Below are positions 4,028 to 28,393 of a DNA stretch of 33,262 bases, piece by piece. The notes under the pieces are model-generated. The model made no database searches. It was not told where the DNA came from and saw nothing but the letters and a program-made list of their open reading frames with translations. The translations under genes were made by a program, and so were the position numbers. Positions within the stretch are counted from its first letter, which is position 1. Each line of letters starts with the position of its first letter. This DNA comes from Bacteroidales bacterium. GTDB taxonomy: Bacteria > Bacteroidota > Bacteroidia > Bacteroidales > UBA10428. Where the stretch lies: contig DAOUOU010000003.1 in assembly GCA_030626465.1 (NCBI GenBank), positions 1 to 33,262 on the forward strand, in the 5' to 3' direction.

Positions 4028-4028
4028 G

Positions 4029-5771: not shown

Positions 5772-5924
5772 AATGGGGAATGGTTTAATACTTATTAAAT
5801 TTAATTAAAATTAGCATAAATAGTAATTTTCTTCGTTATTAAAATTACAAGCCCTTAAGTTATTTTCAACTTTAAATCATTTACAAAAGCTGAATTTTTA
5901 TTTCTGACTTTGCTACAGAAAAGG

Positions 5925-5932
5925 TAAATTTG
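5925..5932 (+). promoter_or_regulatory. Putative Bacteroidota sigma-A -7 element
   Basis: TAAATTTG matches TAnnTTTG, just upstream of the ATG at 5956. Confidence 0.4.
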
Positions 5933-5955
5933 TTTTGACAGGAACTATTTTTATT

Positions 5956-6630
5956 ATGAGATTATTGGCCGGATTGATTTTTCTTGTACTTGTTAACCAC
6001 TGCGTTTCTTCACAGGTTGATTCCACTGAACTAGTTGAATATACAACTGATTTTCAGTTCAAAGAGGGACTATATCTTAATTTTAATCAGATAAAAACCA
6101 ATTCTCCTCTTCCAAAATCCAGAATAATCTCAACATATGATTACAATGATCCCGAATTTTTTGATAAAGTATTGTCCAAGTTGAAAGTCTTTTATTACGA
6201 TAACATTGGTAACAGGAATGAATTAAAATCTGATAATATTTGGGGATATTCCAGAAATGGATTCCTGTATATAAATATAGATGATGATTTTTTTAGAATT
6301 ACATTAATAGGAGCCATTTGTCACTTTATTGCAAGTCATACAACATACACCAATTATTATAATTCGCCCTATTACTACAATTCATATTATGATCCATATC
6401 GTATGCATCCTTCCTCATACCCAACTACAGAGATGAGACAATATTTACTGGATTTTACAACAGGAAGGGTATTGGATTATAACTTTGAATCGCTTGAAGC
6501 AATATTAATGCAGGATCCGGAATTACATGACGAATTCGTTGCTCTGAGTAAGAAAAAAAAGAAACAACTTAAATTTATTTATATACGTAAGTTCAACTCA
6601 AGAAATCCTTTATATTTTCCAAAAAATTAA
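5956..6630 (+). CDS. Secreted hypothetical protein with a Tyr-rich segment
   Basis: ATG 5956 (the ORF track starts at TTG 5935) gives signal peptide MRLLAGLIFLVLVNHCVSS-Q; contains YTNYYNSPYYYNSYYDPY. Confidence 0.8.
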   Translation: MRLLAGLIFLVLVNHCVSSQVDSTELVEYTTDFQFKEGLYLNFNQIKTNSPLPKSRIISTYDYNDPEFFDKVLSKLKVFYYDNIGNRNELKSDNIWGYSRNGFLYINIDDDFFRITLIGAICHFIASHTTYTNYYNSPYYYNSYYDPYRMHPSSYPTTEMRQYLLDFTTGRVLDYNFESLEAILMQDPELHDEFVALSKKKKKQLKFIYIRKFNSRNPLYFPKN

Positions 6631-6642
6631 AAATGTTTAATC

Positions 6643-7491
6643 ATGAGAAAAACGATAATTGCTCTGATCTATAGTGCCTTGTCAACTATAATTATTGCGC
6701 AAAGTTACATCCCAAGCAGAGACGATATCAATGCCTTTTTTAACACTAAAACCATGGTAGTGTTGCTGGATAATCCCTTATTGGAATATAATATTGTAAT
6801 CAAGGAGGTAATGGAACAGGAATGGACCATCACAGAATTCGAATACATCACCTTCAAAGAATTTGAGGAGCTGAGATTTGATCCACAGTATTCTTTTCTT
6901 TATATGTCGCAGGTTACATTTGAAAATGACAAAACAGACGCGAGATACAGATTCCTTCACCTATCACTTGGCGGAGATTATTTCAGAAAGAACCAGATGC
7001 CAGATATTGCTTCTATTCCTCTATCCTACTATAATGTTGAGGAAGACAACTACATATATAAACTGGCAATTCTGGTGAGATTCATCCAGAAACATGCTTT
7101 GCTGATTAAAGATCATCCTGAGATAGTTTCAGCAAATGTTCTTCAACATTACAATAATAATATCAAGGACATAAAGGGCAAGAACCTGTATTTGCTTGAA
7201 GAAGAATTATCAGATGAAGTGAATTCCACAGCCAGGATAAAGAAAATATATTCCTACGATTTCAGGATTGTAACAAAGGAAAATATCACTGAGGCTATTG
7301 CTAACAGGGATAAGGATATTGTATTTCTCCATAAAGTTGGACCTGAAGGTACGAAAATTAATGCAAGGTGTTATAAAATTATTATTGGAGCTGCAGATGC
7401 CAATTTTTACTATTTCGATTATCATAAAATCTCAAATAAAAAACCTGATGGATTTTTAAGTCAGGATTTTAAAAAACTTGAAAGGAAATAA
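6643..7491 (+). CDS. Secreted hypothetical protein
   Basis: 282-aa ORF 12 bp after the previous gene; signal peptide ending IIA-Q; no recognised domain. Confidence 0.82.
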   Translation: MRKTIIALIYSALSTIIIAQSYIPSRDDINAFFNTKTMVVLLDNPLLEYNIVIKEVMEQEWTITEFEYITFKEFEELRFDPQYSFLYMSQVTFENDKTDARYRFLHLSLGGDYFRKNQMPDIASIPLSYYNVEEDNYIYKLAILVRFIQKHALLIKDHPEIVSANVLQHYNNNIKDIKGKNLYLLEEELSDEVNSTARIKKIYSYDFRIVTKENITEAIANRDKDIVFLHKVGPEGTKINARCYKIIIGAADANFYYFDYHKISNKKPDGFLSQDFKKLERK

Positions 7492-8463: not shown

Positions 8464-10422
8464 ATGGATCTTTCGGTAATAATAGTAAATTATAACGTCA
8501 AGTATTTCCTTGAACAGTGCCTTCATTCGGTTTTCAAATCATTAGAAGGCATGAGTGGTGAGGTTATTGTGGCAGACAATAACTCGGTTGACGGATCGTG
8601 TCAGATGGTGAAAGAAAAATTCGAGGATGTTATTCTTTTTCAAAACAACAGAAACCTGGGCTTCTCCAAGGCAAACAATCAGGGTATTAAAATTTCCAAA
8701 GGGAAGTATGTTTTATTACTTAATCCGGATACTATTGTACAGGAAGATACTTTTTCAAAATGTTTTTCCTTTATGGAAAAGCATTCAGATGCAGGAAGTC
8801 TGGGTGTAAAAATGATTGATGGCAAAGGTAATTTTTTGCCTGAATCGAAAAGATCCCTGCCAACTCCACTTGTATCTTTTTTTAAAATTTTTGGATTATC
8901 TGCTCTTTTACCTAAATCAAAATTATTCGGAAGATATCATTTAGGTTATCTGAATAATAATGATATAAATAAAGTTGAAATATTATCGGGCGCATTTATG
9001 TTTATTAGAAAGTCTGTTCTTGACCAAACAGGGTTTCTTGATGAGACATTCTTTATGTATGGAGAAGACATCGATCTTTCCTACAGAATCATTCTTGCAG
9101 GGTATGACAACTATTATTATCCCGAAACAACTATCATTCATTATAAGGGAGAGAGTACAAAAAAGGGCAGTATCAATTATGTAATGATGTTTTACAGAGC
9201 CATGATAATATTTGCAAGGAAACACTTTTCGGTAAAAAATGCACGCTTGTTTAGTTTTCTGATCAATTCGGCAATTTATTTACGTGCTTCAGCCTCAATC
9301 ATCAGAAGATTCTTTCTTTCCATTATTATTCCCTTAAGTGATGCTTTGTTAGTATTTGTCGGATTCTATTTTCTGGAACCGTTCTGGGAGAAATTCAAGT
9401 TTGGCAAGGAGAATTATTATCCTAATGAATACCTGATGTATGTAGTTCCTTCTTATATTATAATATGGTTTTTCTTTTTATACATTTCTGGTGCTTATGA
9501 AAAACGCACCAGATCTATTGACCTGATAAAGGGTATTTCACTTGGTACAATGGTGTTACTCCTTATCTATGCTTTACTTCCCGAGAGTTTGAGATATTCA
9601 AGGGCACTTATTCTTCTTGGAACTCTTTGGGCAACATTCTCCATATTTTTCACCAGAATCACTATTGGTACTATCCTGAATAATGTAAAACTATCCTTTA
9701 GAAAACAGAAAAGAAGAATTGTTATAGCAGGGTCACCCAGAGAAAGTAACAGGGTTCTTTCAATTATGAAACAGGTAAATATTGATCCCTCTTTTATTGG
9801 ATTAGTGGGATGGAAAGATGAAGATAAAGTTGAAAGCTACATGGGAAATCTTTCGCAACTTAATGATATCATAAAAATAAACCGAATTGATGAGATAGTT
9901 TTCTGTGCCAAGGATATCCCTTCACAGAAGATAATTCAGACCATGTTAAGTGTTTCCGAAACATCAGTTGATTTTAAAATAGCTCCCCCTGAAAGCCTGT
10001 CAATAATTGGAAGCAGTTCAATAAATTCGGCAGGTGAGTTGTACGTTGTTCATTTCAATTCACTTAGTCAAAATCTGGCCAGAAGAAAAAAGAGAATATT
10101 TGATTTAATTGCAGCATTGGCCCTTTTGCTGACAATTCCCATATCTGTTCTTTTTATCAAAAAACCTTTAGGATTTATACGGAATATTGTTCTTGTGATC
10201 ATAGGTGTCAGAACATGGGTCGGATTTTATTATATCCATTCAAGTGAGTTGAGTTTGCTTCCTCGTATTAGTCCGGGAATTCTTACTCCTATAACAGCAT
10301 CCAGGAATAAGGCAATTAATACTGAAACTATTAAGCGGATGAACTTGTTGTATGCAAAAGATTATAAAATGATAACCGATTTATCTATCATATTACGTGA
10401 CTTTAATTATTTGGGCAGATAA
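8464..10422 (+). CDS. Family 2 glycosyltransferase fused to a WcaJ/WbaP-like membrane region, Rossmann-like domain and degenerate sugar-transferase domain
   Basis: GT2 motifs SVIIVNYN, ADNNSVDGS, NLGFSKANN, LLNPD and FFMYGEDIDLS; then TM helices, IVIAGS/IDEIVF and a KKRIFDL...YAKDY..TDLSII tail. Confidence 0.9.
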   Translation: MDLSVIIVNYNVKYFLEQCLHSVFKSLEGMSGEVIVADNNSVDGSCQMVKEKFEDVILFQNNRNLGFSKANNQGIKISKGKYVLLLNPDTIVQEDTFSKCFSFMEKHSDAGSLGVKMIDGKGNFLPESKRSLPTPLVSFFKIFGLSALLPKSKLFGRYHLGYLNNNDINKVEILSGAFMFIRKSVLDQTGFLDETFFMYGEDIDLSYRIILAGYDNYYYPETTIIHYKGESTKKGSINYVMMFYRAMIIFARKHFSVKNARLFSFLINSAIYLRASASIIRRFFLSIIIPLSDALLVFVGFYFLEPFWEKFKFGKENYYPNEYLMYVVPSYIIIWFFFLYISGAYEKRTRSIDLIKGISLGTMVLLLIYALLPESLRYSRALILLGTLWATFSIFFTRITIGTILNNVKLSFRKQKRRIVIAGSPRESNRVLSIMKQVNIDPSFIGLVGWKDEDKVESYMGNLSQLNDIIKINRIDEIVFCAKDIPSQKIIQTMLSVSETSVDFKIAPPESLSIIGSSSINSAGELYVVHFNSLSQNLARRKKRIFDLIAALALLLTIPISVLFIKKPLGFIRNIVLVIIGVRTWVGFYYIHSSELSLLPRISPGILTPITASRNKAINTETIKRMNLLYAKDYKMITDLSIILRDFNYLGR

Positions 10423-10428
10423 TTCATT

Positions 10429-11757
10429 ATGAGTAAAATAGAAGTTATATTACCAGCAATGGGAGAAGGAATTATTGAGGCCACCATTACGAAGTGGTTG
10501 GTCGAGGAAGGTAAATTTGTTCATGAAGATGAATCCTTGCTGGAAATTGCTACAGACAAAGTTGATTCAGAGATACCTGCTCCTGCATCGGGCATGCTTT
10601 CGCGCATCATTTATCGTGAAGGTGAAATACCAAAAGTTGGAGAAGTTCTGGCAATAATTGAGAGCGGGATCGAAAAAAAAATCGTTATTACAGAAGAAAA
10701 AACAGATACAGACATTGGAGATAATACAATTTTTAAAGAGGTGGCAGATAATGAGATCCTTCCTGATAAACCTGTTATTTCGAGCTCAGAATCAAAAAAA
10801 ATCAGATCCTCATCTGAGGATCTGATTTTGACTCCTTTTATACGTTTTCTTGCCAAGAACCGTGGAATCACATTCGAAGAACTTAGGCAAATAAAAGGTA
10901 CTGGGCTTAACGGACGTATTACAAAAGCAGATTTAACTTCCTATATTGTTTCAGGAAGAAGCTATCAGGCGGTTAGATCAGCAGACTTTTCCAGGGAGCA
11001 AGTATCAAAAACTGTGCAGAAGGAAAACAAACAGGAGGAGTACAACATAGGTCCCGGCGAAGAACTGATAGAAATGGATCGCACGCGAAAGTTAATTGCT
11101 GAGCACATGGTACGTTCCAAACGAATTTCCCCACATGTAACCTCTACAGTTGAAGTTGATGTAACCTCCCTTGTCCTATGGCGGAACAAGAATAAAGATA
11201 ACTTTTCTAAGAAGTATGGAGTTAAGCTAACATTTACACCAACAGTTGTTTATGCTGCCGTAAAAGCATTGAAAGAATTTCCGGACATTAATATCTCGGT
11301 TTCCGGTCATTCTATTATTCGCAAGAAATATATTAACATTGGTGTGGCAACAGCATTACCTGATGGAAACCTGATCGTACCGGTGATAAAAGATGCCGAT
11401 AAACGGAATTTTGCAAACATTGCTCTTCAGGTTGCTGATTTAGCATCAAAAGCCAGGCAAAGCAAACTAAAACCATCTGATATCAAAGGAGGTACATTCA
11501 CCATTACAAATATGGGAAGGTATGATAATATTTCAGGCACTCCAATAATCAATCAACCCGAAGTTGCGATATTAGCTGTGGGAGCTATAAAAAGAAAGCC
11601 TGCTGTTGTAATAAATAATGGCACGGAAACACTGGGGATTCGCGATATCATGGTATTATCCCTGACTTATGATCACAGGGTTGTGGATGGTTCTTTAGGT
11701 GGCTCATTTGTTCAGACTCTGGGAAAATATTTAACCAAAGAACTGCCTGAGTATTAG
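10429..11757 (+). CDS. 2-oxo-acid dehydrogenase E2 (dihydrolipoamide acyltransferase)
   Basis: Lipoyl motif IATDKVDSEIPAP; E3-binding motif IKGTGLNGRITKAD; GGTFTITN, PIINQPEVAIL and catalytic TYDHRVVDG. Confidence 0.96.
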   Translation: MSKIEVILPAMGEGIIEATITKWLVEEGKFVHEDESLLEIATDKVDSEIPAPASGMLSRIIYREGEIPKVGEVLAIIESGIEKKIVITEEKTDTDIGDNTIFKEVADNEILPDKPVISSSESKKIRSSSEDLILTPFIRFLAKNRGITFEELRQIKGTGLNGRITKADLTSYIVSGRSYQAVRSADFSREQVSKTVQKENKQEEYNIGPGEELIEMDRTRKLIAEHMVRSKRISPHVTSTVEVDVTSLVLWRNKNKDNFSKKYGVKLTFTPTVVYAAVKALKEFPDINISVSGHSIIRKKYINIGVATALPDGNLIVPVIKDADKRNFANIALQVADLASKARQSKLKPSDIKGGTFTITNMGRYDNISGTPIINQPEVAILAVGAIKRKPAVVINNGTETLGIRDIMVLSLTYDHRVVDGSLGGSFVQTLGKYLTKELPEY

Positions 11758-11843: not shown

Positions 11844-11851
11844 TAAATTTG
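11844..11851 (+). promoter_or_regulatory. Putative -7 promoter element for TPR-PD40 paralogs 1 and 2
   Basis: TAAATTTG, 25 nt before ATG 11877. Confidence 0.5.
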
Positions 11852-11876: not shown

Positions 11877-14800
11877 ATGAGGATTAACTATCAGTTTTTG
11901 TCTCTCATTTCCATTGCCTCCCTAATTTGCTTTAATGCGATTACTCAGGAGGTAATCAATACCAAAGAATTATTTATTGAGGCTGAATCTTATTTTCTGT
12001 TTGAAGAATACAGGGATGCATTACCCTTGTACCAGAAGATAATACGTACAGAACCAAATAATTATAATGTTCTCTTCAAAATTGGAGTATGTTATCTCAA
12101 CGATACCTATTTGGCAAATAAATCTTTGCAATACCTTAAACAATCTGCTGAAAACATCAATCTTAAATACAAGCGGAATAACTTTCGAGAGAAACAAGCT
12201 CCTCTTGAAGCCCTTTATTATTTTGGCAGAGCTTACCATATCAACAATATGCTTGACGAAGCCATTGAAAGTTATCAGCGTTTTAAAAATCTTGCACATC
12301 CTGATGAATTTGACATAGATATTGTCAATGAAGATATAAATGCCTGTCAGGTTGCAAAAAAGATGCTTGGCAATCCTGTATTTTTCTCACCTATAAATAT
12401 GGGTAATACAATTAATTCAAGGTTTGAAGAGATCAATCCGGTTGTTTCCGGCGATGGGAAAACATTAATATTTACAAGAAAACTACAGTTCTATGATGGG
12501 GTATTTTTAAGCAAGAAAGATGACAATGGAAATTGGTATGAACTCATAAATCTAACTTCTGATTTTGGATTGGATGGGAATACTTACTCATGCGGAATTT
12601 CCTATTTTGGAGATGAAATTTTTGTGTATCGAAGTGACAATTATGACGGTAATATTTATTCCAGCAAACTTGTTGGAGATAATTGGGGAAGATTAATCAA
12701 ATTGAACTTTAACATCAACACCAAATTCTGGGAATCGCATGCAACTCCTTCACCAGACGGACAATACCTATATTTCACTTCAAATCGTACCGGCGGATAT
12801 GGAGGCCTTGATATTTATAAATCAAAGAAAGGCGCAAAAGGAGAGTGGGGATCTGCAGTAAACCTTGGCCCGGTTATTAACTCTCCTTATAATGAAGACA
12901 CACCTTTTTTAAGTAACGAAGGATATACAATTTTTTTTAGTTCTCAAGGGCATGAAACAATGGGAGGTTATGATATTTTTGTAAGCAATTTAAAGAGCAA
13001 TGGTACCTGGAGTAAACCAAAAAATATGGGTTCTCCGGTTAATACTACCAACGACGATTTATTTTATAATCCGATAGGAGTAAATTCTTTTGGTTACTAT
13101 TCCTTGTTTGATGAATCAAGTTCTTTTGGCATGTTGGACATTTATAAGATTGAAGTGTATAATGAGATGATTCCTCGAAGTTTTGAGGTAAAGGGACAGT
13201 TAAACGTTGCTGATGCCAGTTCGAGATTTTATAAAAAGCTTACTGCAAAACTTATTGATACAGAAACAAGGGAAATAGTTAACGAAACCATGGTTGAAGG
13301 AGACGGGAGTATTTCATTACCCGCCTCACAGGGCGCATATATTTTAGTAATTGAGGGGCAGGAAGTTGAATCTTACCAGAAAGAAATAATCCTTTCCCTT
13401 ACACAACCTGAGACAATTGTTGTTTTGCCTGCAATGAATTTAGTGAAAACTGACAGTAAAACACCTCCTGTAGAAATTGGATCACCAGTAAAAGAAAAGA
13501 TAGTAGCAAAAAGCGATTTCTATGCAGTAAGTGATTCAAGTGTTGTTCCTATTTCCCTTATCATTCCAAAAGGATCCGATTTGAATATTGAGGTTTCGGT
13601 TAACGACAGATTTGGCTATTCAGAACGGTTAGAATCTGTTAATAAGAGATTTACATATTTCTACAAACCAAAACCAGGAGAAAATCTATTAAAGTTTACG
13701 GCTACTGATAAAGATGGAGTTATTTCTTCAACAGAAGTTGTAGTTACCTATTATTTGCCTTATGTGGCTGAAAAAGAAATTAAATTACAGGAAAAGGAAG
13801 CTATTCTGTCGTTGTATGCCAAATCGTTTGATTTGTTAGCAGTAGGAGCATTGCAGGAGTATTTGCATGAGATAGAAACCTCTGATTTCAAGAGCTATTA
13901 CCATTTGTATACTCATCTTTTAGAAGTATCAGAGGAAAAGGGATTTATAAAGAAAGATATTGACGAGGTCTTTTCCATATATTTTACACAAAAGAGCATT
14001 ATACTATTCGATCTGGAGCTTAAAAAAGCATATTCAGAACAAGACAGTAATTGGCAACGTGTTCTTGATAGTTCAACTATCCCTATAATCTATATTCAAA
14101 CTCTTCTAAAGAAAAAACTTGTTTTAGAAAAGAACATACAGGAAGCATTACTGAAAATTGTATCAGATAAATTTGAGAGTGGTAAAGAGACATACAATTA
14201 TCTGTTAGGATTTCATAGGAATACAGATGAGTTTTCCATAAAAGACATTGATATGGCAACATCCGTTCAGGCCTGGGAATTGCTTTCAAACAATATTGGT
14301 GATAAGGATGCTTATTCCTTACTTCAACTGGCATCTACTACCGAAGGCCTGGATTATTTTTACCAGAATTTATTAGCAGCTTCAACAGATAGTTTGCATG
14401 ATTATCTGACAAGTATACAATTTGAACCTCTGGGGATTAATAATTCGGTTGATTTGACCGAACATTTGTTTGATATTGCATCCCAGGGAAGCTTTACTTT
14501 GGCAGAACTTATTAAAATTCTGGAACTGGTCTCAAATAATAAAAAGTATTATTTGAATTCTTTTAACGAGGTACTTACCAATAGTGCAAGAGGCACTTTA
14601 AAATCACAACTTTTACTGCTTAATATGGATGAAAAGCAGATTCACAGTTACGAAGGATTATTGCGGTATCTTGTTGAACAATCCCAACATAAAGATTTCT
14701 CAAGAGAAGAAGTGTATAACTTACTTCTCGAATTGATAGGTATTACAGATATTAATGTATTTGCACATAAAATAAAATCTTATAGTATTGCCTCAATCAA

Positions 14801-15083
14801 TAAGGCTCTTGCAGATACTTCATTAAAATATTTTTCAAATCCATTTGAGCTATTGCAATATCTTTTAGTTTCGGTTCAGGATTACGACTTCACTGAGTCT
14901 GATATCAATAATTTACTCATAAGAATGATTTTGGAACGTGGACTTGCAGAGGGAATTGATAAAAATTATGATGTGGATGAAAAGAAAATTTGGAAGAACA
15001 AGAATTTCCTGACATCCATTATCTTAGTAAATATCGTAATATTGATATTAATTATTCTCCTATCCCGACGTAGAAAAAAATAA
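11877..15083 (+). CDS. TPR-PD40 (PorE-like) protein with beta-sandwich domains, helical repeats and a C-terminal TM anchor; no OmpA domain
   Basis: Signal peptide; TPRs; PD40 repeats (SPDGQYLYFTSNRTGGYGGLDIY, NLGPVINSPYNEDTPF, MGGYDIF); Ig-like KPGENLLKFTATD; C-terminal FLTSIILVNIVILILIILL followed by SRRRKK. Confidence 0.85.
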   Translation: MRINYQFLSLISIASLICFNAITQEVINTKELFIEAESYFLFEEYRDALPLYQKIIRTEPNNYNVLFKIGVCYLNDTYLANKSLQYLKQSAENINLKYKRNNFREKQAPLEALYYFGRAYHINNMLDEAIESYQRFKNLAHPDEFDIDIVNEDINACQVAKKMLGNPVFFSPINMGNTINSRFEEINPVVSGDGKTLIFTRKLQFYDGVFLSKKDDNGNWYELINLTSDFGLDGNTYSCGISYFGDEIFVYRSDNYDGNIYSSKLVGDNWGRLIKLNFNINTKFWESHATPSPDGQYLYFTSNRTGGYGGLDIYKSKKGAKGEWGSAVNLGPVINSPYNEDTPFLSNEGYTIFFSSQGHETMGGYDIFVSNLKSNGTWSKPKNMGSPVNTTNDDLFYNPIGVNSFGYYSLFDESSSFGMLDIYKIEVYNEMIPRSFEVKGQLNVADASSRFYKKLTAKLIDTETREIVNETMVEGDGSISLPASQGAYILVIEGQEVESYQKEIILSLTQPETIVVLPAMNLVKTDSKTPPVEIGSPVKEKIVAKSDFYAVSDSSVVPISLIIPKGSDLNIEVSVNDRFGYSERLESVNKRFTYFYKPKPGENLLKFTATDKDGVISSTEVVVTYYLPYVAEKEIKLQEKEAILSLYAKSFDLLAVGALQEYLHEIETSDFKSYYHLYTHLLEVSEEKGFIKKDIDEVFSIYFTQKSIILFDLELKKAYSEQDSNWQRVLDSSTIPIIYIQTLLKKKLVLEKNIQEALLKIVSDKFESGKETYNYLLGFHRNTDEFSIKDIDMATSVQAWELLSNNIGDKDAYSLLQLASTTEGLDYFYQNLLAASTDSLHDYLTSIQFEPLGINNSVDLTEHLFDIASQGSFTLAELIKILELVSNNKKYYLNSFNEVLTNSARGTLKSQLLLLNMDEKQIHSYEGLLRYLVEQSQHKDFSREEVYNLLLELIGITDINVFAHKIKSYSIASINKALADTSLKYFSNPFELLQYLLVSVQDYDFTESDINNLLIRMILERGLAEGIDKNYDVDEKKIWKNKNFLTSIILVNIVILILIILLSRRRKK

Positions 15084-15094
15084 TAGCCAAGTAT

Positions 15095-17104
15095 ATGAAA
15101 TATTGCCTATATTCAGCACTAGTACTCATCTTACAGACAATTTTTATTGTAGATATTCCCGCTCAAATCTGGCTTTCAAATAAGGATATATATAATGAGG
15201 CAGAAGAATACCTGCACGCCAATGAATACATAGAGGCTCTGCCTCTTTATATGTTACTTGAGAAAAAAGAAGTAATAAATGCCAATATCTCTTATAAAAT
15301 TGGTATATGTTATTTGAATATCCGGGGTAAAAAGAATAGGTCAATTCCATATCTGGAAAGTGCCAGCCAAAATGTAAGGTATGATTATCAAAATACTGTT
15401 GAGGAAACAAATGCTCCGCTCAAGGCGATTCTCTTATTAGGTGTAGCATACAGAATAAATAACGAACTAAAAAAAGCGATTAAAACTTTTGAATCACTTC
15501 GAGATAAGGTGGCAATTAGTGACTCGGAGCTGGATGCAATAATCGATATGCATATCAAACGATGCGAAAATGCTATTCTTCTGGGTGCTTTCCCGGGAGA
15601 ACCGCGTACTGAGAAACTTCCGGATCATATAAATAATGAATTTTCAAATTTCAATCCTGTTTTGGTTGACCATGACAGAGTATTGTACTATATGGAAGAA
15701 CTGAAGTTTTATGATGCTTTAATGCGTGTGGAAAGTGATAATGATAGTTGGGGTATGCCTGAAAACTTAACACCAAAAATTGGAAGTGATGGGGATCATA
15801 TACTTGTTGGTGCATCATCCGATGGAAAAACATTGCTGCTATACATATATGAAGCCCTGAAGGCAGGTGAAATTTACTCCATTCAATTTGCTGATGGTGG
15901 CTGGTCTAAACTAAAGCCACTGAATAAAAATATTAACACAAAGTATCACGAAACACATGCCAGTTATTCGGCAAAGAATGAGACCCTGTATTTTACAAGT
16001 AATCGTCCCGAAGGTTATGGAGGCTTGGATATTTATATGTCAAAACTTGACGAAAATAACAACTGGGGACCTGCGGTAAATCTGGGACCAATTATTAATA
16101 CCCCCTACAACGAAGAAACTCCCATTATCAATAACGATGATAATATTCTGTATTTTAGTTCACAGGGGCATCTGAATATGGGAGGATACGATGTTTTTCA
16201 TTCCTTGCGTAAAGAAAAAAACGAGTGGAGACAACCGATCAATATGGGATCGCCGGTATCAACAACCGATGATGACCTTTTTTATTTTCCTCTTGAAAGT
16301 GGTATTTCCGGATTAATGTCACGTCTGGAAGAGTCCAATTCAACTGCATACGACATATACCGTTACAATAGCATGGTGTTTGCAAATTCTCCCCGGTTTG
16401 ATGTAAGGGGAAAAGTACAATCGGTTGATAGTTCAAATTACATAGATCACCAGGTAATAGTTGTTAATAATGAAACATCAGACACACTTATAAGCAGAAT
16501 TCCTGAACCGGATGGAAATTACGAAATATTATTGCCTGCAGGAAATTTTTCGATTCTTGTTTTTGATCAGAAGGGAAATATTAGTTCCGGCACGGTAATT
16601 CTCGAAGATGGAGATACCGAGAAGGAAGTAATTACAGGAACTCTCGCTCAAAGGGTTGATAGTATTGAATCAGAGGAAATAAGAAGAGATACCGTGTATC
16701 TAAAACATTTGCTTTTTGGTTTTGATAATCATGTATTTTCAACCGTATACAAGAATTATCTCGATACCATAATCAGTATTATGCACAAATATCCCTCTCT
16801 TGTAATTAACATTGAAGGATATACAGATGCAATTGGTAGCGAGAATTATAATCTTTATCTTTCAAGGCGACGGGCAAACGCCGTTGCCAGATATCTCCTT
16901 TCTGATAATATTGGCCAGGAAAGGATTAAGGTTATAGCCCATGGAGAATCCAATCCGATTGCAATTAACACAAATACAGATGGGACTGATTGTTCTGATG
17001 GACGAAGATATAACAGAAGAGTTGAACTCGTACCTCAACAGGATACATCAGAAGTTATCTTTGTTATAGAGATTCATATGCCTGAAAGACTAAAACAGAA
17101 GTAA
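15095..17104 (+). CDS. TPR-PD40-carboxypeptidase-regulatory-like-OmpA protein (PorE-like architecture)
   Basis: Signal peptide IPA-Q; TPR; PD40 (LYFTSNRPEGYGGLDIY); DGNYEILLPAG; OmpA C-terminal motifs LLFGFD, IEGYTDAIGSENYNLYLSRRRA and NRRVE. Confidence 0.92.
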   Translation: MKYCLYSALVLILQTIFIVDIPAQIWLSNKDIYNEAEEYLHANEYIEALPLYMLLEKKEVINANISYKIGICYLNIRGKKNRSIPYLESASQNVRYDYQNTVEETNAPLKAILLLGVAYRINNELKKAIKTFESLRDKVAISDSELDAIIDMHIKRCENAILLGAFPGEPRTEKLPDHINNEFSNFNPVLVDHDRVLYYMEELKFYDALMRVESDNDSWGMPENLTPKIGSDGDHILVGASSDGKTLLLYIYEALKAGEIYSIQFADGGWSKLKPLNKNINTKYHETHASYSAKNETLYFTSNRPEGYGGLDIYMSKLDENNNWGPAVNLGPIINTPYNEETPIINNDDNILYFSSQGHLNMGGYDVFHSLRKEKNEWRQPINMGSPVSTTDDDLFYFPLESGISGLMSRLEESNSTAYDIYRYNSMVFANSPRFDVRGKVQSVDSSNYIDHQVIVVNNETSDTLISRIPEPDGNYEILLPAGNFSILVFDQKGNISSGTVILEDGDTEKEVITGTLAQRVDSIESEEIRRDTVYLKHLLFGFDNHVFSTVYKNYLDTIISIMHKYPSLVINIEGYTDAIGSENYNLYLSRRRANAVARYLLSDNIGQERIKVIAHGESNPIAINTNTDGTDCSDGRRYNRRVELVPQQDTSEVIFVIEIHMPERLKQK

Positions 17105-17223
17105 CAAATTCAGAATTCAAGATATTTGTATCAATCTTATCTCAACTTTTTTTATTAATTTAATGGTGTTAACATGGAATGAAATTGTTAATAGAGTGAT
17201 CTGTTTTATTCATGTTATTGATT

Positions 17224-17231
17224 TAAATTTG
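17224..17231 (+). promoter_or_regulatory. Putative -7 promoter element for paralog 3
   Basis: TAAATTTG, 16 nt before ATG 17248. Confidence 0.5.
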
Positions 17232-17247
17232 AATAAAATCCATCCTG

Positions 17248-19110
17248 ATGAAAAGGCTGATTATTATCTTAATACTGGTTCATTATGTGGGATTCAGTTC
17301 TTTTGGGCAAAAAAGTGAAAGTGAAATTGCTTTGAAAGAATATTTTATCGATGCTGAGTTTTTTCTTGCTCAGGAATTCTATATAGACGCGCTTAACGAT
17401 TATTTACAGGTTTACAGAAGAGGGTATGATAATAATGCAAATATCAATTACAGAATAGGTATCTGTTATTTGAATATTCCGGGGCAAAAAGAAAAATCCA
17501 TTCAGTATTTTGAAACTGCTAAAACATCAGTATCTGCAAAATATCGTGAAAGTAGCCTTAAAGAAAAGAATGCTGCCATTGATGTTTATCTATACCTTGG
17601 TAATGCTTATAGGGTAAACAACAGATTGGATGATGCTATTCGTTCTTATAAAGAATATAAGAAACTTTTGCCCGAGAATGAATCAAATTTGCATAAATAT
17701 GCTGACCAGCAGATTGAGGCCTGCAATATTGCCAGCGAATTCATGAAACATCCGATAGATGTTGAATTTTCTAATCTTGGTCCTGTTATCAATAACAGTG
17801 GTGAAAACTACAAAGCTGTGGTTTCAGGAGACGGATCAGTTCTTGTTTATATGAATCGGTTGCCTTTTTATGATGCGGTATCTTTTTCCAGGAATATTGG
17901 TGGAGAGTGGTCAGAACCTGAAAATATTACGCCTCAGATAATGTCTGATGGAAACCAATTTGTCACTTCTTTATCGTATGATGGCACCATGCTCCTTCTT
18001 ACAAAGGAAGATGAATTCAATAGTGATGTACTTGTCAGTCATTATGTAGATAACAGATGGACAAAATCTGAACTCCTGGGCTCAAACATTAATACAAAAT
18101 ACTGGGAGTCTCATGCCTGCATTTCAAAAGATGGTAAAACACTTTATTTTACAAGTAACCGCAAAGGAGGAATAGGAGACATGGACATCTATGTTTCTCA
18201 TCTGACCGCAGAGGGGAAGTGGGGACCGGCGATAAATCTGGGCACTGACATTAACACCAAACTTAATGAAGATACTCCATTTATTACTGAAGATGGTCAA
18301 CAACTTTATTTTGGCTCACAGGGATTTACAAGCATGGGAGGTTATGATATATTTGAATCAAAATTGGAAGGTGAGGGGAAATGGTCTGTACCTGAGAATC
18401 TGGGTTTTCCGATAAACACAACAGATGATGATTTGTTTTACTATCCTTGGAACAATGGTGTAGTGGCATACATGGAAAAAATACAAGAGGATAGTTATGG
18501 TGCTACCGATATATATAAAGTTATATATCCTTTAAAAATCGATGAAAGTATTGCACAACAAGTTATTCCTGTTGATACAAAACCTGATACGACAACCGGG
18601 ATCATTCCGGCACCATTGACAGAGATGCCGGAATCTTCCGAAATTAGAGAAGAACCTGAGCAGACGCTTGAAATAGCGGAGGTTAAAACCATTGCTATTT
18701 CTCCCGTCTTTTTTGGCTTTGATAAATCGATTCTAACTGAAAAGGGCAAGGAAGAATTACACAAGATCGTTGATTTGCTCAGGCAAAATTCGCATATACG
18801 TGTAGAACTGATTGGGTATACTGATCCTTTAGGACCAGCTTATTATAACGTAAGATTGGCAGAAAAAAGAGCAGTATCAGCCATGAATTTCCTTATTGAA
18901 CAGGGGATTGATGCTGATCGGCTAAAAGCAATTGGAAAAGGTGAAGTTGATTTTATCGCAGTGAACACCAATAAAGACGGATCAGATAATAGTAAGGGCA
19001 GAAAATACAATCGCAGAGTCGAATTTGAGATAACAGGTGTTGATAACAATACCTTAATTATAAAGCGGATTGATCCGGTGCCAGAGCATTTGAAAATTCA
19101 ACAGAAATAA
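17248..19110 (+). CDS. TPR-PD40-OmpA protein (PorE-like) with a Pro/Thr/Glu-rich linker
   Basis: Signal peptide SFG-Q; TPR; PD40 (SKDGKTLYFTSNRKGGIGDMDIY); linker DTKPDTTTGIIPAPLTEMPESSE; OmpA motifs VFFGFDK, GYTDPLG and NRRVE. Confidence 0.92.
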   Translation: MKRLIIILILVHYVGFSSFGQKSESEIALKEYFIDAEFFLAQEFYIDALNDYLQVYRRGYDNNANINYRIGICYLNIPGQKEKSIQYFETAKTSVSAKYRESSLKEKNAAIDVYLYLGNAYRVNNRLDDAIRSYKEYKKLLPENESNLHKYADQQIEACNIASEFMKHPIDVEFSNLGPVINNSGENYKAVVSGDGSVLVYMNRLPFYDAVSFSRNIGGEWSEPENITPQIMSDGNQFVTSLSYDGTMLLLTKEDEFNSDVLVSHYVDNRWTKSELLGSNINTKYWESHACISKDGKTLYFTSNRKGGIGDMDIYVSHLTAEGKWGPAINLGTDINTKLNEDTPFITEDGQQLYFGSQGFTSMGGYDIFESKLEGEGKWSVPENLGFPINTTDDDLFYYPWNNGVVAYMEKIQEDSYGATDIYKVIYPLKIDESIAQQVIPVDTKPDTTTGIIPAPLTEMPESSEIREEPEQTLEIAEVKTIAISPVFFGFDKSILTEKGKEELHKIVDLLRQNSHIRVELIGYTDPLGPAYYNVRLAEKRAVSAMNFLIEQGIDADRLKAIGKGEVDFIAVNTNKDGSDNSKGRKYNRRVEFEITGVDNNTLIIKRIDPVPEHLKIQQK

Positions 19111-19116
19111 ATAAAT

Positions 19117-19143
19117 GAGCTGTCTTTCTACCAGACAGCTTTT
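19117..19143 (+). terminator. Intrinsic terminator
   Basis: Stem AGCTGTCT (19118-25), 7-nt loop, AGACAGCT (19133-40), then TTT; directly after the stop at 19110. Confidence 0.7.
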
Positions 19144-19230
19144 GTTATTCATTGCCAATTGAGCTCTTAATAAATCGGTATACATTTTGCTGCCTTTTTT
19201 TTATTTTTGAATTAACCAAACTTGCTATCG

Positions 19231-20562
19231 ATGAAAATGTTTCTTTCATGCCTGTTTATAGCATTCGTTATAGGCTTTACTACAATACAGACTTTTTGCC
19301 AAAATGATAATGCAATTAGTGAAAACTTTAGAGAAGGTGAGTATTTCTTTAAAAGGGGAGAATATAAAAATGCAGTGATGTATTATATCAAACTGGTAGC
19401 AATAGACTCGCTTAATTCAAATTATAATTTTAAGGTTGGAGAATGTTATCTGAATATTCCTTCAAAGGAGCATCTTGCAATACCTTATTTTGAAGTAGCG
19501 GTAAAAAATGTTGTACCAAAGAAAAAGTATAAGAGAAGGTCGCAGGAAGAAAGGAACGCTCCATTGCATGCATATTTTTATCTGGGCAATGCTTATCGTA
19601 TCAATAACAAATTGGATAAGGCTTTGGAGAGCTATGCAAAGTTTATTGATTCTCCCTTTTTTTGGGGCAACTATAATCCGGGTATTGTCGAGCGGGAAAT
19701 CAAGTCCTGCGAAAGAGCAAAAATTATTCAAGATGCTCCTATTGAATATGAAAAAATAAATCTTGGAGAGGCAATTAATTCGCGTTTCTCAGAAGAAAGA
19801 CCTGTTGTATCGGGTGACGGGAATACACTAGTATTCATAAGACGCTTACAATTCTACGATGCTATATTTTACTCTGTGAAGGAGAATGGCAAATGGCGAA
19901 AAGCGAAAAATATTAATCCGCAAATTTTATCTGATGGTGAATTCTACCCTTCAGGGTTATCGCACGATGGAAGTCAATTGCTATTAATAAAAAAAGAATC
20001 AGAGACAAGCAATATTTATATTTCGTATCTTGAAGTAGACAACTGGTCAGAAGCCATAGAAGCAGATAATAATCTGAATTCAAATTCATCCGAAATACAT
20101 GCAAGTTTCGATCGGGAAGGAAATACTATTTATATAACTAGCAACAGATCAAAGAGCAAAGGTGGTTATGATATTTTTAAATCGAAACTTACTTCAAAAG
20201 GAACATGGAGCAAGCCTAAGAATCTGGGGAAGACAATTAATTCCGAATTCAATGAACAGGGAGCATATAATTATTCAATTCCCGGCGTACTCTTTTTTTC
20301 CTCCAAAGGGCATTATAACATGGGAGGCTTTGACATCTTTTATAGCAGAAGAACAGGTAAGAAATGGTCCATACCGGTAAACATTGGATATCCAATTAAT
20401 GATACTCGTGACAATCTGAATTATTGTCCTTCAGAGAAACTGAAAGAAGGATATTATGCTATCAATGATTCCCAAGGACTTGGCCAGTCTGATATATTTC
20501 TTATAAAAATTAAATCACTAAGTGTGTTGAATTTTGAACTGGAAGATGAGAAGGAACAATGA
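19231..20562 (+). CDS. TPR-PD40 protein without any C-terminal anchor domain
   Basis: ATG 19231 (alternative TTG 19222); signal peptide TFC-Q; same TPR and PD40 motifs as the upstream paralogs; ends just after the last blade. TATTTTTG -7 element at 19202-19209. Confidence 0.88.
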   Translation: MKMFLSCLFIAFVIGFTTIQTFCQNDNAISENFREGEYFFKRGEYKNAVMYYIKLVAIDSLNSNYNFKVGECYLNIPSKEHLAIPYFEVAVKNVVPKKKYKRRSQEERNAPLHAYFYLGNAYRINNKLDKALESYAKFIDSPFFWGNYNPGIVEREIKSCERAKIIQDAPIEYEKINLGEAINSRFSEERPVVSGDGNTLVFIRRLQFYDAIFYSVKENGKWRKAKNINPQILSDGEFYPSGLSHDGSQLLLIKKESETSNIYISYLEVDNWSEAIEADNNLNSNSSEIHASFDREGNTIYITSNRSKSKGGYDIFKSKLTSKGTWSKPKNLGKTINSEFNEQGAYNYSIPGVLFFSSKGHYNMGGFDIFYSRRTGKKWSIPVNIGYPINDTRDNLNYCPSEKLKEGYYAINDSQGLGQSDIFLIKIKSLSVLNFELEDEKEQ

Positions 20563-20578
20563 AGCATAAGTACCAGAA

Positions 20579-20701
20579 TTGAAAACAGATCTTAAATACC
20601 ATAGATTTTTATATGTGTTAGCTGTCTCTCTAATCCTGACATCCTATTTAGATGGACAAGCAACCGGGGATGCGAAAGAGGATTTCCTGATGCCTTTCTA
20701 A
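20579..20701 (+). pseudogene. Probable remnant (signal peptide plus first helix) of a fifth TPR-PD40 paralog
   Basis: TTG 20579 to TAA 20701 encodes MKTDLKYHRFLYVLAVSLILTSYLDG-QATGDAKEDFLMPF. AKEDFL resembles the mature N-termini LKEYFIDA and TKELFIEA of the paralogs. Confidence 0.5.
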
Positions 20702-20752
20702 GAACTATAGTTACTGTCCAGAATTATTCAGGAGAATAAAATAGATGGAGCT

Positions 20753-21286
20753 ATGAAGAAAAAAAAGAAAATAAATCTTAGAGCGCTCGAAGCTGAGGAT
20801 ATTGGCTTGCTTTACGAGTGGGAGAATGATAAACGAATATGGCAAGTGAGCAATACCATTACTCCGTTTTCAAAATTTATCCTGCAAAAATATCTTGATA
20901 ATTCTCACATGGATATTTATCAGGCAAAACAACTGAGATTAATGATCGATCTTGCTGAAGGCGATTCAAAGAGAACAGTTGGAGCAATTGACCTTTTTGA
21001 CTTTGATCCTTTTCATCTGAGAGCAGGTGTTGGAATTCTAATAGGGGGAGAAGCAGACCGCAATAAGGGGATTGCTACTATGGCCATGGAGGAACTTATC
21101 AATTATTCTTTTAACATTCTTCACCTACATCAGCTATACTGTAATATTTCTGCAAAAAATAAAGCAAGCTTGAGTGTATTCAAAAAAGCAGGATTTAGTA
21201 TTTGTGGCACAAAAAGAGAATGGTTGAAGTCACATGAAGGATTTGTTGATGAAGTTTTACTTCAACTAATCAATTCAAGTTATTAA
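20753..21286 (+). CDS. GNAT N-acetyltransferase (RimJ/RimL/SpeG-like)
   Basis: INLRALEAEDI..LYEWEND, GAIDLFDFDP, RNKGIATMAM, LHQLYCNI..NKASL..FKKAGF. Confidence 0.92.
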   Translation: MKKKKKINLRALEAEDIGLLYEWENDKRIWQVSNTITPFSKFILQKYLDNSHMDIYQAKQLRLMIDLAEGDSKRTVGAIDLFDFDPFHLRAGVGILIGGEADRNKGIATMAMEELINYSFNILHLHQLYCNISAKNKASLSVFKKAGFSICGTKREWLKSHEGFVDEVLLQLINSSY

Positions 21287-21422
21287 CATTTTTAATAAGT
21301 TAAATAAACAAATTCAAATATTATTTATAACTTAAGTGCATTAACAGCATAATATGGTTTGCACTGGGAAAGGAAATACTCCTGCTTCTATAAAATATCA
21401 ATTACCCTTGAGCCTTATTATT

Positions 21423-23006
21423 ATGAGAAGGAAAGTTATTGAGTACATTATACTGATTTTTATTTGCTCATGTTCTTTTCAAGCAAAAGCTCAGAGTCTG
21501 ATCGCTTTAAAGGATTATGTTATCAAAAAAGACAAATTTGCAGTCGATAAGGCCATTGACAAAATAAAAGAGGCAGGAGAACTCACGCAGGAAGCCAATA
21601 ATTACTATAATGAGGCATTGGAACTACAATCGAATTATAAGCTTGATGAACAGACACTTCAGAAAAAGTTAGCAAAGGTTGAGAAGAAGGCACTGGAAAC
21701 CCAGATGAAAGCAGATAAAATCTATACTTCTGCCTATAAGTCTTTGTATGAAATATGCCAGAAAACTCTACAAGCCACTGGCACTGTTACTTATGGTGAT
21801 GCGGATAGTTTTATAGAAACAGCCGAAGAAATGATGAATAATGCTTCATCAAAAAGAAAGGAAGCATCGGGTGTTACTAATCCATATGAAAAAGCAGCAA
21901 TGCTGAATGATGCAGCAGGAATGGAAAATACTGCAATTGAGAATATGATCGTGGCGTTTAAGGCACAGGCAGGAGAAGATGTTACATCGGCTATGGCAGA
22001 ATCAACTGCTGAGGAATATTATGATTACCAGGAAGAAAGTTATGCCTCTTCTCAGGAAGAGTCATATACCAGTGAGGTATATCAAGTTAGTGAAAATCTG
22101 GCAATCGACAAGAATATAATCCAAAAGTATGAGGATTATGTATCAGACGAATCTATACCTGATCCAATAATGATAAATCGTTCAGGAGTAGTTGGAGTAT
22201 CTGAAGCATCGGTAGATCAGGCAAGGATAATTCTTCATGAGTACACAACAGGAGATATCAGTGCAATGTATACGGACAAAGAACCTTCATTGGCTATCCT
22301 GGATTCCATTAGCAGCATAACTCAGACAGAAGAAGTCACTGGTACTATTGATGATGAATATGCAAGTCAGTACGAGGAGAGAATCATAGAGATGGAGGAG
22401 CCTACCGAAGCAAGAGAAGTTTTTGACATAAGTTATGTGACGCAATCTAAAGGGGTTCGGTTCATGGTGCAATTGGCGGCAAGCAGAATCCCTCTTAATC
22501 GTGCTCAGATGTGGGCTATTTATCCGGGCAATCTTACCATTGGAGTTATCAGAGAAGATAACTGGTACAAGTATCGCATAACAGGATTCAGACTTTTTTC
22601 AGAGGCAAACCGGGTTGCAATTAAATCAGGTGTTAAATATGCCTGGGTTTTATCATCAAACGATGGGATCTTAATAAACCTTGTAGAGGCAAGAGACATG
22701 ACGAGGGTTTTGGAAGCTGATGTAAAACGGAGAGGTAGAGGTGTTATTGAAAATGAAACTGATTTCTTTGTGCAGGTTTTGGCTTCCAAAATAAGACTAA
22801 ACGAGCAGGAGATGAATAGCCATTGCGGTTATTCAGGCCGTTGCAGAGAAATAATTGAAGAAGGATGGTTCAAATATCAAATTTATGCTGGCACATCTTA
22901 CCAGGAGGCGCTCTCGTTGAAAAATGAGATTACCGGTAAGTCATTTATTGTTACATATAAAGCCGGATCTAAACAAAATCTATATAAAGCTATACATAAC
23001 AAGTAA
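21423..23006 (+). CDS. Secreted protein with a helical N-domain, acidic linker and two C-terminal SPOR-like domains
   Basis: ATG 21423 (ORF track 21354) gives a signal peptide ending AKA-Q; two repeats FMVQLAAS...WYKYRI..F..FSEA and FFVQVLAS...WFKYQI....YQEA. Confidence 0.75.
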   Translation: MRRKVIEYIILIFICSCSFQAKAQSLIALKDYVIKKDKFAVDKAIDKIKEAGELTQEANNYYNEALELQSNYKLDEQTLQKKLAKVEKKALETQMKADKIYTSAYKSLYEICQKTLQATGTVTYGDADSFIETAEEMMNNASSKRKEASGVTNPYEKAAMLNDAAGMENTAIENMIVAFKAQAGEDVTSAMAESTAEEYYDYQEESYASSQEESYTSEVYQVSENLAIDKNIIQKYEDYVSDESIPDPIMINRSGVVGVSEASVDQARIILHEYTTGDISAMYTDKEPSLAILDSISSITQTEEVTGTIDDEYASQYEERIIEMEEPTEAREVFDISYVTQSKGVRFMVQLAASRIPLNRAQMWAIYPGNLTIGVIREDNWYKYRITGFRLFSEANRVAIKSGVKYAWVLSSNDGILINLVEARDMTRVLEADVKRRGRGVIENETDFFVQVLASKIRLNEQEMNSHCGYSGRCREIIEEGWFKYQIYAGTSYQEALSLKNEITGKSFIVTYKAGSKQNLYKAIHNK

Positions 23007-27772: not shown

Positions 27773-28393
27773 ATGACTGTACTCATTATTGCAATTACAA
27801 TACTTATTTCTGTACTGGCCTTTAATAACCGGACTTTATTCTCTCGTCTGCAGTTTAATGCTTATCAGATCTATTACCGCAGAGAATTTTACAGACTTTT
27901 AAGTCATGGTTTTGTGCATGCAAACTGGTGGCACCTGCTTATCAATATGCTTGTTTTGTATTTCTTTGGAGGGTATGTTGAGCAGACATTAAAAATACTT
28001 TCTGTGCAAGGCATGTTAAAATATCCATTACTTGTATATCTGATCCTGTATCTTTCCGCCATCGTTTTTGCCTCAAGTATCAGCCTGGTAAGGCACAAAG
28101 ATAATCATTGGTACAATTCGGTCGGAGCCTCGGGAGCAGTCTCGGCAGTGGTTTTTTTCAGTATCTTTTTTGAGCCATGGAAGAAACTATACCTTTATGG
28201 CGTGCTGGGTATACCGGGGATCGTATTCGCTGTTCTTTACCTGATATATGCGCAATATATGTCGCGCCGGGGAGGAGACAACATCAATCACGACGCACAC
28301 TTCCTGGGGGCTGTTTTCGGCTTTGTTTTTCCTCTTTTTATTGATATGAACTTGTTCAAATACTTTCTTTCCCAGCTGGGAGGGATTTTTTGA
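27773..28393 (+). CDS. Rhomboid family intramembrane serine protease
   Basis: YRLLSHGFVHANWWHLLINM, catalytic GASG and HDAHFLGA. Confidence 0.95.
   Translation: MTVLIIAITILISVLAFNNRTLFSRLQFNAYQIYYRREFYRLLSHGFVHANWWHLLINMLVLYFFGGYVEQTLKILSVQGMLKYPLLVYLILYLSAIVFASSISLVRHKDNHWYNSVGASGAVSAVVFFSIFFEPWKKLYLYGVLGIPGIVFAVLYLIYAQYMSRRGGDNINHDAHFLGAVFGFVFPLFIDMNLFKYFLSQLGGIF

Follow-up and report, generated by a model that had tools for sequence, protein, structure and literature searches.

The four adjacent genes described here, P1 to P4, probably encode a conserved set of non-lipidated periplasmic tethers, which would form a distinct clade of the PorE/CHU_0125 superfamily and link a partner on the outer-membrane side to layers of the cell envelope. 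The genes are carried by a stretch of 33,262 nt (the window) from a Bacteroidales bacterium (UBA10428): assembly GCA_030626465.1, contig DAOUOU010000003.1 (labelled C31), forward strand. The assembly amounts to 2.46 Mb in 233 contigs and is estimated to be 70% complete. The four open reading frames (ORFs) lie head to tail, all on the + strand (11877-20562). Their products have one type of N-terminal head, made of TPR motifs and a PD40 beta-propeller, and different tails: a helical-repeat stalk with a predicted membrane helix (P1), an OmpA_C domain (P2 and P3) or none (P4).

Already known are PorE, CHU_0125 and scattered PorE-like genes. New are the array of one head with different anchors and the repeat of the P1 stalk. 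No paper was found on such a tandem array, on an inner-membrane-anchored member or on the stalk repeat; the supplements of the cited papers (e.g. PMC12204202 S1) were outside the search.

The common head and its family

Pfam detects PD40 and TPR in all four proteins and OmpA (PF00691) in P2 and P3 only. The PD40 cut-off (PF07676, 20.9 bits) is exceeded in each case: P1, 74.5; P2, 49.7; P3, 58.6; P4, 32.6 bits. P1 is 33-38% identical to P2, P3 and P4 over about 430 N-terminal residues. Three motifs had been read from the letters of the window as private to four adjacent genes. This is exact: each motif, written as a regular expression, retrieves P1 to P4 and nothing else when the whole assembly is scanned (3,416 ORFs with a length of 80 aa or more, 876,227 aa in total), an exclusive match far beyond chance.

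The nearest NCBIfam models are NF052230 (PorE) and NF053607 (CHU_0125), with E values of 1e-30 to 1e-63. The cut-off of neither is reached. NF052230, cut-off 600 bits: P1, 128.8; P2, 193.5; P3, 204.2; P4, 107.7 bits (whole proteins; 103-204 bits overall). NF053607, cut-off 620 bits: 131-215.7 bits for whole proteins and 116.5-171.6 bits for the best single matches of the genome search (117-216 bits overall). The real PorE of the genome is encoded elsewhere (contig C81:15274-17268, - strand, 671.6 bits), and three further PorE-like paralogs are present (C97, C95 and C51).

The domain order of PorE (TPR, propeller, CRD, OmpA_C) is found in P2, whose match covers positions 6-604 of the 648 of NF052230; the CRD is missing from P3, OmpA_C from P1 and both from P4. 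With PorE of Porphyromonas gingivalis (PG1058), the array has in common the TPR and propeller head, in P2 also the CRD-like region and OmpA_C in the same order, and in P2 and P3 the binding residues of OmpA_C. The array proteins differ from PorE by their scores below cut-off and by the absence of a lipobox Cys and of a PorP neighbour. Three tail types of the array are not those of PorE: a membrane helix on a repeat stalk, no tail, and, in the fifth paralog (P5) of relatives, SPOR. CHU_0125 of Cytophaga hutchinsonii is made of the same TPR, PD40 and OmpA_C domains and is proposed to hold the outer membrane to the wall (PMC5891637); unlike the array, it is the product of one gene only, and its annotation is that of a Pal-like lipoprotein.

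Export

Each of the 66 N-termini listed for orthologs of P1 to P6 has a Gln after the hydrophobic leader (read by eye), and in every one of the four ortholog clades this +1 column is Gln in 85% or more of the sequences (43 species, as in all column counts below). No Cys is conserved at the lipobox position in the N-termini listed; Cys near the leader is sporadic. The sequence-only reading, which had seen signals of the signal peptidase I type followed by Gln and no clear lipobox, is borne out. Gln at +1 of Bacteroidetes signal peptidase I substrates is the known Q-rule (PMC5837995, PMC10653852) and is no peculiarity of the cluster. Each protein would be exported by Sec and cleaved by signal peptidase I in front of this Gln. 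P1 to P4 are most likely soluble or tail-anchored periplasmic proteins, not lipoproteins.

The leader of the genome's own PorE ends with ...IYSQ and also has no Cys; this PorE may not be a lipoprotein, unlike the one reported from P. gingivalis.

Tails of P2, P3 and P4

The OmpA_C cut-off (27.2 bits) is exceeded by P2 (62.7 bits) and P3 (67.4 bits). The motif TD..G....N..LS..RA is located at aa 577 in P2 and at aa 525 in P3. The binding Asp, Asn and Arg are retained in both proteins; those of P3 (D526, N534, R541) are invariant in 13/13 orthologs. A strict expression of the motif matched 30/42 P2 and 22/42 P3 orthologs, and may be too narrow. Compared with PDB, the profile of P3 matches PorE's C-terminal domain (6TOP, E 1.3e-19), Pal and OmpA chains, and entries of the TolB-Pal complex. 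For PorE, the Asp and Asn that match these OmpA_C residues are reported to be needed for function, and the WD40 domain to be likely involved in PorP binding (PMC12773672). P2 and P3 are therefore best described as putative peptidoglycan binders, through OmpA_C.

The P4 ORF is given from a TTG; judging by the N-termini of orthologs, its start is likely the ATG at 19231 instead. All four tails are as they had been described from the letters.

Tail of P1 and its stalk repeat

The CRD-like stretch that follows the propeller of P1 aligns with that of P2; a second beta-rich stretch comes next. PF13620 is precomputed for 3/32 of the homologs listed (CRD-like beta-sandwich of P1). The P1 tail of about 400 residues has no Pfam match at E <= 1, no sequence match in PDB (one at E 0.97) and no usable match in the ESM Atlas. 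Aligned with 25 orthologs, it consists of tandem units of about 66 residues with a 52-residue core: xAxGxLKxxLxxLDxxxxxIxxxxxLxxYLxxxAxxxGYxxxDVxxLL. Four copies are detectable in P1 of the window (aa 654-700, 835-882, 903-954 and 980-1018), with degenerate copies between them. The core shows three amphipathic segments parted by G/D/N/P positions, with S/T-x-x-E/D caps, and the unit is read as three helices. The number of copies grows with the length of P1: 2-4 copies (835-967 aa), 3-6 copies (1015-1196 aa), 7-9 copies (about 1490 aa).

The stalk profile retrieves 201 of 1.84 billion representative proteins at E <= 0.001. Among 25 of these matches submitted to Pfam, PD40 is found in 9 and other domains (Laminin_G_3 or GT2) in 3. 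Judged by these matches, the stalk repeat makes up a new and small family of domains, with few members among public proteins. A metagenomic protein of 2108 aa (P0033) carries up to 19 copies and no PD40 at E <= 1e-5; the repeat is therefore not confined to PorE-like proteins.

P1 ends with a 19-residue hydrophobic segment and RRRKK. This pattern is kept in 26/26 aligned tails, and a hydrophobic stretch with a K/R tail was flagged in most full-length P1 ORFs of the 80-locus survey described below.

Orthology, age and distribution

A maximum-likelihood tree was built from 70 head sequences: all head-bearing ORFs of 14 loci and 8 from this genome, none dropped. It was rooted on the PorE of this genome. 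The heads of the array stand on one branch (length 1.42, SH-aLRT 100), apart from PorE, C95 and C97, and the monophyly of the heads, for which a phylogeny had been proposed as a check, is supported to that extent. Each position of the array forms its own ortholog clade (support: P1, 99; P2, 99; P3, 100; P4, 100; P5, 98). The P1 and P2 sequences from other families take basal positions in their respective clades.

A comparison of the DNA shows repetition only in short stretches, at conserved motifs (the longest: 86 nt, 60-74% identity). There are no long repeats, which argues against recent duplication or gene conversion. P1 to P4, as their sequences present them, are old paralogs that result from an ancient duplication. 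Local duplication, as suggested earlier, thus stands for the paralogy and the single head type and falls for any recent event, given the separate ortholog clades, the occurrence of P1 and P2 in other families and the DNA comparison.

P1 orthologs were found in 24/24 same-genus genomes searched (E <= 1.1e-196; some are cut by contig ends), and full-length ones are 40-66% identical within the genus. Beyond the genus, a P1 match that extends past the head was found in 2/16 genomes from 16 other families (G028 and G033). The gene order in 12 same-genus loci is: GT2 fusion, E2 acyltransferase, P1, P2, P3, P4, P5 (10/12), GNAT. A scan of species-representative genomes gave 80 loci. Every one comes from a metagenome-assembled genome with the label Bacteroidales or Bacteroidota, and no cultured carrier was seen. 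The tails encoded by these loci were classed by purpose-built hidden Markov models. An intact P1 ORF was missing from nine loci, and 15 broke off too early; the other 56, each with at least 9.5 kb after the P1 start, are informative. The order transmembrane (TM)-OmpA-OmpA-none is found in 30 of the 56, and 14 more have the same order plus a further member, which carries SPOR in 12/14. The order is thus kept in 44/56 informative loci; TM-OmpA-none is found in 7/56. The expectation that the cluster would be conserved in relatives is confirmed.

Across the order, the stalk profile was detected in 32/401 evenly drawn genomes (28/342 high-quality genomes; 24/236 genera); a search with a single sequence had given 12/301 genomes and was replaced by the profile search. 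The array is a minority trait in the order. PorP/SprF was found in 40/41 relatives searched and in 15/16 of the other-family genomes. Since PorP/SprF is near-universal but the stalk and P1 matches beyond the head are rare, the array is not a general part of type IX secretion.

Conservation within the heads

In the heads, 51 columns reach 85% conservation or more in every one of the four clades, with the same residue in 50/51: 36 of these in the propeller and 14 in the TPR part. Conserved positions private to one clade: P1, 19/184; P2, 1/110; P3, 13/171; P4, 19/127. Those located before residue 166 (TPR part) are 16/19 in P4 and 10/19 in P1. The mean identity of heads is 47-61% within clades and 32-42% between clades. 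The alignment argues for a propeller core common to the heads, with conserved positions proper to P1, P3 and P4, concentrated in P4 in the TPR part. The earlier idea of one same binding head holds for the propeller core but is too simple for the whole, given the identity between clades and the private positions.

A conserved Cys pair in the TPR part was considered and dropped: the only Cys at least 85% conserved in all clades is that of P1 position 157.

The fifth paralog

In relatives, P5 consists of the head, an acidic linker and a SPOR-like domain. It is intact in 10/12 same-genus loci and missing in 2/12. The Pfam SPOR score (PF05036, cut-off 21) is 37.9 bits in one relative; two others have E values of 0.014 and 0.2, and two have no match. 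All 10 P5/P6 tails align over one conserved C-terminal domain of about 85 residues. SPOR domains are known from division proteins, e.g. FtsN and DamX. The C-terminal domain of P5 resembles these in its match to Pfam SPOR (above the cut-off in one relative), but it forms one protein with a PorE-type head.

What remains of P5 in the window lies in the 190 nt that separate P4 from the GNAT gene. The N-terminus of P5 (from the signal peptide as far as ...GQATGDAKEDFL, to 20689) continues out of frame with the C-end GFPDAFLRTIVTVQNYSGE* (from 20680); this C-end corresponds to the last 20 residues or so, followed by the stop, and about 1.5 kb are lost. The word at the junction, GGATTTCCTG at 20680, is similar to what intact relatives have at each of the two sites. 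This points to a deletion between copies of a short direct repeat (microhomology), which removed about 1.5 kb and thereby P5. The junction is bridged by one independently built Logan contig (record 5, 20565-20886) of run X1, probably the source sample; run X3 has no contig over the junction and gives no second-run support. A clear P5 remnant is present in the window only (E 4.7e-5), and none was found in the 29 other loci without P5 tested. The sequence-only reading had placed the end of the feature at 20701, which falls inside this scar; the fifth paralog had escaped it.

After 19853, one run X1 contig departs from the sequence of the window and runs on for 255 letters as a loose end; the sample may hold another variant of P4. 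A gene downstream of the array encodes a protein of 550 aa. Its signal peptide conforms to the Q-rule, its N-terminal half is coiled-coil-like, and an acidic linker precedes a C-terminal pair of SPOR-like repeats (RFMVQLAASR... and FFVQVLASK...). Pfam SPOR is found at E <= 0.1 in 3/8 of its orthologs (best 2.8e-4), and a homolog in 27/80 related loci (best-hit blastp).

Transcription units

The gap between P1 and P2 has a median of 5.5 nt in the 42 canonical loci and is at most 15 nt in 31/42, some genes overlapping; in the window, P2 starts 11 nt past the P1 stop. The gap between P2 and P3 has a median of 132 nt and is at most 15 nt in 0/42. TAnnTTTG, taken here as the Bacteroidetes-type -7 promoter motif, is found near the start (-150 to +30 for P1) of P1 in 38/42, P3 in 36/42, P4 in 17/42 and P2 in 5/42 loci. 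The expectation from the density in the window (16 matches on the + strand in 33 kb) is about 8%; the 42 loci are related, so that neither motif nor gap counts are independent. Because P1 and P2 abut, P2 and P3 are spaced and the motif precedes P1 and P3, two conserved transcription units are indicated: P1-P2 and P3-P4(-P5). The public runs listed include none of RNA that contains this sequence.

Terminator-like sites in the region number 13, against 8.1 +/- 3.0 in shuffled sequences. Sigma-70-type promoter-like sites are at the level of shuffled sequences (73 against 69.7 +/- 8.3), and the composite pattern TTTG-N17-23-TAnnTTTG has 0 matches. An inverted repeat with a 14-bp stem (AAAATCAGATCCTC...GAGGATCTGATTTT), terminator-like on both strands, lies within the E2 acyltransferase ORF.

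Proposed function

The preferred reading, that of non-lipidated tethers, can be laid out as follows. The common head comprises about three TPR motifs and a PD40 propeller of about 270 residues. P1 would be inserted in the inner membrane, and its head would be carried out into the periplasm by two beta-rich domains and a series of three-helix repeats, whose number varies with lineage. P2 and P3 would bind peptidoglycan. P4 would be a free head, which may cap or compete. In relatives, the SPOR-like domain of P5 would direct it to the septal wall. By analogy with PorE and PorP, the propellers could dock on a partner on the outer-membrane side. The tails would then couple this partner to the inner membrane, the bulk wall and, in relatives, the septal wall, and the diverged TPR parts could give each paralog a second contact of its own. 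Together, the members could form an envelope-spanning scaffold.

Several points weigh against this reading. There is no outer-membrane protein gene in the window, and none of the genome's 8 PorP/SprF genes or 6 genes for proteins whose C-terminal domain (CTD) is of type B lies on the contig of the window. Because P1 to P4 have no lipid anchor, contact with the outer membrane would depend wholly on a putative protein contact. The heads need not share one ligand, because identity between clades is 32-42% and some conserved residues are clade-private. The inner-membrane topology of P1 is predicted from its sequence, and the three helices of the stalk unit from hydrophobic periodicity. Monophyly is judged against three outgroup paralogs, all from this genome. 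A paralog of the same genome, C51, falls inside the P1 clade with a branch length of 4.14; it was set aside as a long-branch artefact.

How Bacteroidota hold and constrict their outer membrane is the wider question. PorE-type CpoB-TolB-Pal fusions are proposed in PMC12204202 as outer membrane-peptidoglycan tethers that replace Tol-Pal in Bacteroidetes, for which the same source describes no recognisable tol-pal loci. Loss of CHU_0125 is reported to damage outer-membrane integrity (PMC5891637). The array gives this proposal a testable form: one head in five anchoring versions, in a fixed order and in many species, with a septal member that is often lost. The SPOR, soluble and inner-membrane stalk members would make the fusion proposal more concrete, but no motor gene accompanies the array. 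For annotation, it matters that not every 'PorE-like' gene is an accessory of type IX secretion.

Ordinary PorE-like type IX accessories are a less probable explanation, and a doubtful one. Each head would bind a PorP/SprF barrel and fix a surface protein that bears a type-B CTD to the wall. P1 to P4 are homologous to PorE, whose binding to PorP is shown in P. gingivalis (PMC9143113), and PorP/SprF genes are numerous: 8 in this genome, 10-24 in same-genus relatives. In Flavobacterium johnsoniae, five operons are described that each combine a homolog of PorE with a substrate of type B and a shuttle like SprF (PMC12618676). A similar form exists in this genome: C97:1726-6893 groups a PorP/SprF gene (3857-4741) and then a 703-aa PorE-like gene (4782-6893), with a type-B CTD gene about 2 kb upstream of the latter on the opposite strand. 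The array is never found in that form. Its conserved neighbours are the GT2 fusion, the E2 acyltransferase and GNAT, not a PorP or type-B CTD gene, and the distribution of PorP (15/16 other-family genomes) is not that of P1 beyond the head (2/16) or of the stalk (32/401). Inner-membrane, tail-less and SPOR members fit poorly with a simple role as wall anchors. The PorE-like genes of F. johnsoniae resemble the array in being several paralogs per genome and proposed wall anchors (PMC9143113, PMC12618676); they are scattered, each beside its own barrel and cargo, whereas the array is clustered without either and its anchors differ.

A motor-less counterpart of Tol-Pal, acting in outer-membrane tethering and in constriction at division, is likewise improbable. 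P1 would be TolA-like, P4 TolB-like, P2 and P3 Pal-like, and P5 septal. In this tentative explanation, the array would be a Tol-Pal substitute in a subset of Bacteroidales: an ancestral CpoB-TolB-Pal fusion would have been copied and re-anchored, and the copies together would secure the outer membrane and pull it inward as the cell divides, with no motor driven by protons. The stalk copy would reach from the inner membrane with an adjustable length, two copies would hold the bulk wall and one the septal wall, and the free copy would exchange. The set of a CpoB-like TPR part, a TolB-like propeller and a Pal-like OmpA_C, pointed out for PorE in PMC12204202, consists of the same three periplasmic folds as occur in the Tol-Pal system (TolA, TolB, Pal, CpoB). 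The array is also like Tol-Pal in having an inner-membrane stalk protein, a soluble propeller protein and wall binders. No TolB is found above cut-off in this 70%-complete genome (TIGR02800, cut-off 343 bits; best score in the whole genome, 51.5 bits, on another contig), and tol-pal loci are reported as absent from Bacteroidetes (PMC12204202). The SPOR-like domain of P5, the neighbour with two SPOR-like repeats in many relatives and the matches of the OmpA_C profile to Pal chains, including TolB-Pal complex entries, point the same way. Against this, no TolQ/R- or ExbB/D-type motor gene lies in or beside the array, no lipid anchor is present, and one fused head is found in all members. The anchor of P1 is C-terminal and purely hydrophobic, unlike that of TolA. 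P5 is absent from 30/56 informative loci and deleted here, so that the septal member is dispensable. The head profile matches no TolB chain of PDB at E <= 0.001.

A periplasmic scaffold for the export of capsule or exopolysaccharide by neighbouring polysaccharide machinery is very unlikely. The most constant neighbour of the array encodes a 652-aa protein with a GT2 glycosyltransferase and a membrane part like polyprenyl glycosylphosphotransferases (TIGR03025, 73 bits). This GT2 fusion is found in 71/80 related loci and directly precedes P1 in another family (L044), and Wza and Wzc are encoded within 3 kb downstream in the window; homologs of Wza and Wzc are nevertheless found in only 18/80 and 17/80 loci. 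In several same-genus loci (L038, L045), GNAT is followed by unrelated housekeeping genes. The wide synteny extends to holA and a rhomboid gene, and it has the look of a stretch of chromosome that stays together, not of a functional operon.

It is least credible that the C-terminal helix and basic tail of P1 are a cleavable sorting signal for the syntenic rhomboid-family protease instead of a permanent anchor: the tripartite end of P1 (conserved W-K-x-x-K-F, hydrophobic helix, K/R cluster) recalls sortase and rhombosortase signals, and a 206-aa rhomboid protein, whose best NCBIfam match is rhombosortase (46.3 bits), occurs with the array in 26/80 loci, but this score is under the cut-off of 84, P1 has no Gly-Gly motif, its last 60 residues match sorting-signal models only below threshold (E 0.028 and 0.16), and unrelated genes lie between P1 and the rhomboid gene.

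Features of the window

Table 1. Array genes, their predicted signals and the neighbouring features mentioned in the text
Feature	Coordinates	Strand	Description a
P1	11877-15083	+	1068 aa: signal peptide, aa 1-23; TPR, aa ~24-165; PD40 propeller, aa ~166-432; CRD-like and second beta-rich region, aa ~433-640; helical-repeat stalk, aa ~654-1018; TM helix, aa 1044-1062, then RRRKK
P1 stalk	13836-14930	+	tandem helical repeats, period of ~66 residues
P1 hydrophobic helix and basic tail	15006-15062 and 15066-15080	+	predicted inner-membrane stop-transfer anchor, read from sequence
P2	15095-17104	+	669 aa: head, CRD-like region, OmpA_C (Pfam aa 541-629)
P3	17248-19110	+	620 aa: head, P/T/E-rich linker (aa ~432-487), OmpA_C (Pfam aa 488-579)
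P4	19222-20562	+	446 aa from TTG: head only (signal, TPR, propeller), no tail beyond the propeller
P5 scar	20558-20739	+	deletion remnant of the fifth paralog
-7 motif TAAATTTG b	11844-11851	+	26 nt upstream of P1
-7 motif TAAATTTG b	17224-17231	+	17 nt upstream of P3
-7 motif TATTTTTG b	19202-19209	+	upstream of P4
Terminator-like hairpin c	19117-19141	+	9-bp stem, right after P3
Sensor-phosphatase gene	776-4027	+	1083 aa
Hybrid kinase gene	4029-5771	-
GT2 fusion	8464-10422	+	652 aa
Inverted repeat	10798-10829		14-bp stem
SPOR-like neighbour	21354-23006	+	550 aa
Rhomboid gene	27773-28393	+	206 aa

a Positions are those of the window; aa, amino acid positions in the protein. b Putative; matches to TAnnTTTG. 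c Found by consensus scan only.

In the window, Rfam gives 0 matches and ARAGORN 0 tRNAs. At its left end, the 1083-aa protein combines a Reg_prop/Y_Y_Y sensor and a SpoIIE phosphatase domain, with homologs in 41/80 related loci. The adjoining gene on the - strand encodes a hybrid histidine kinase-receiver protein, with homologs in 43/80 related loci.

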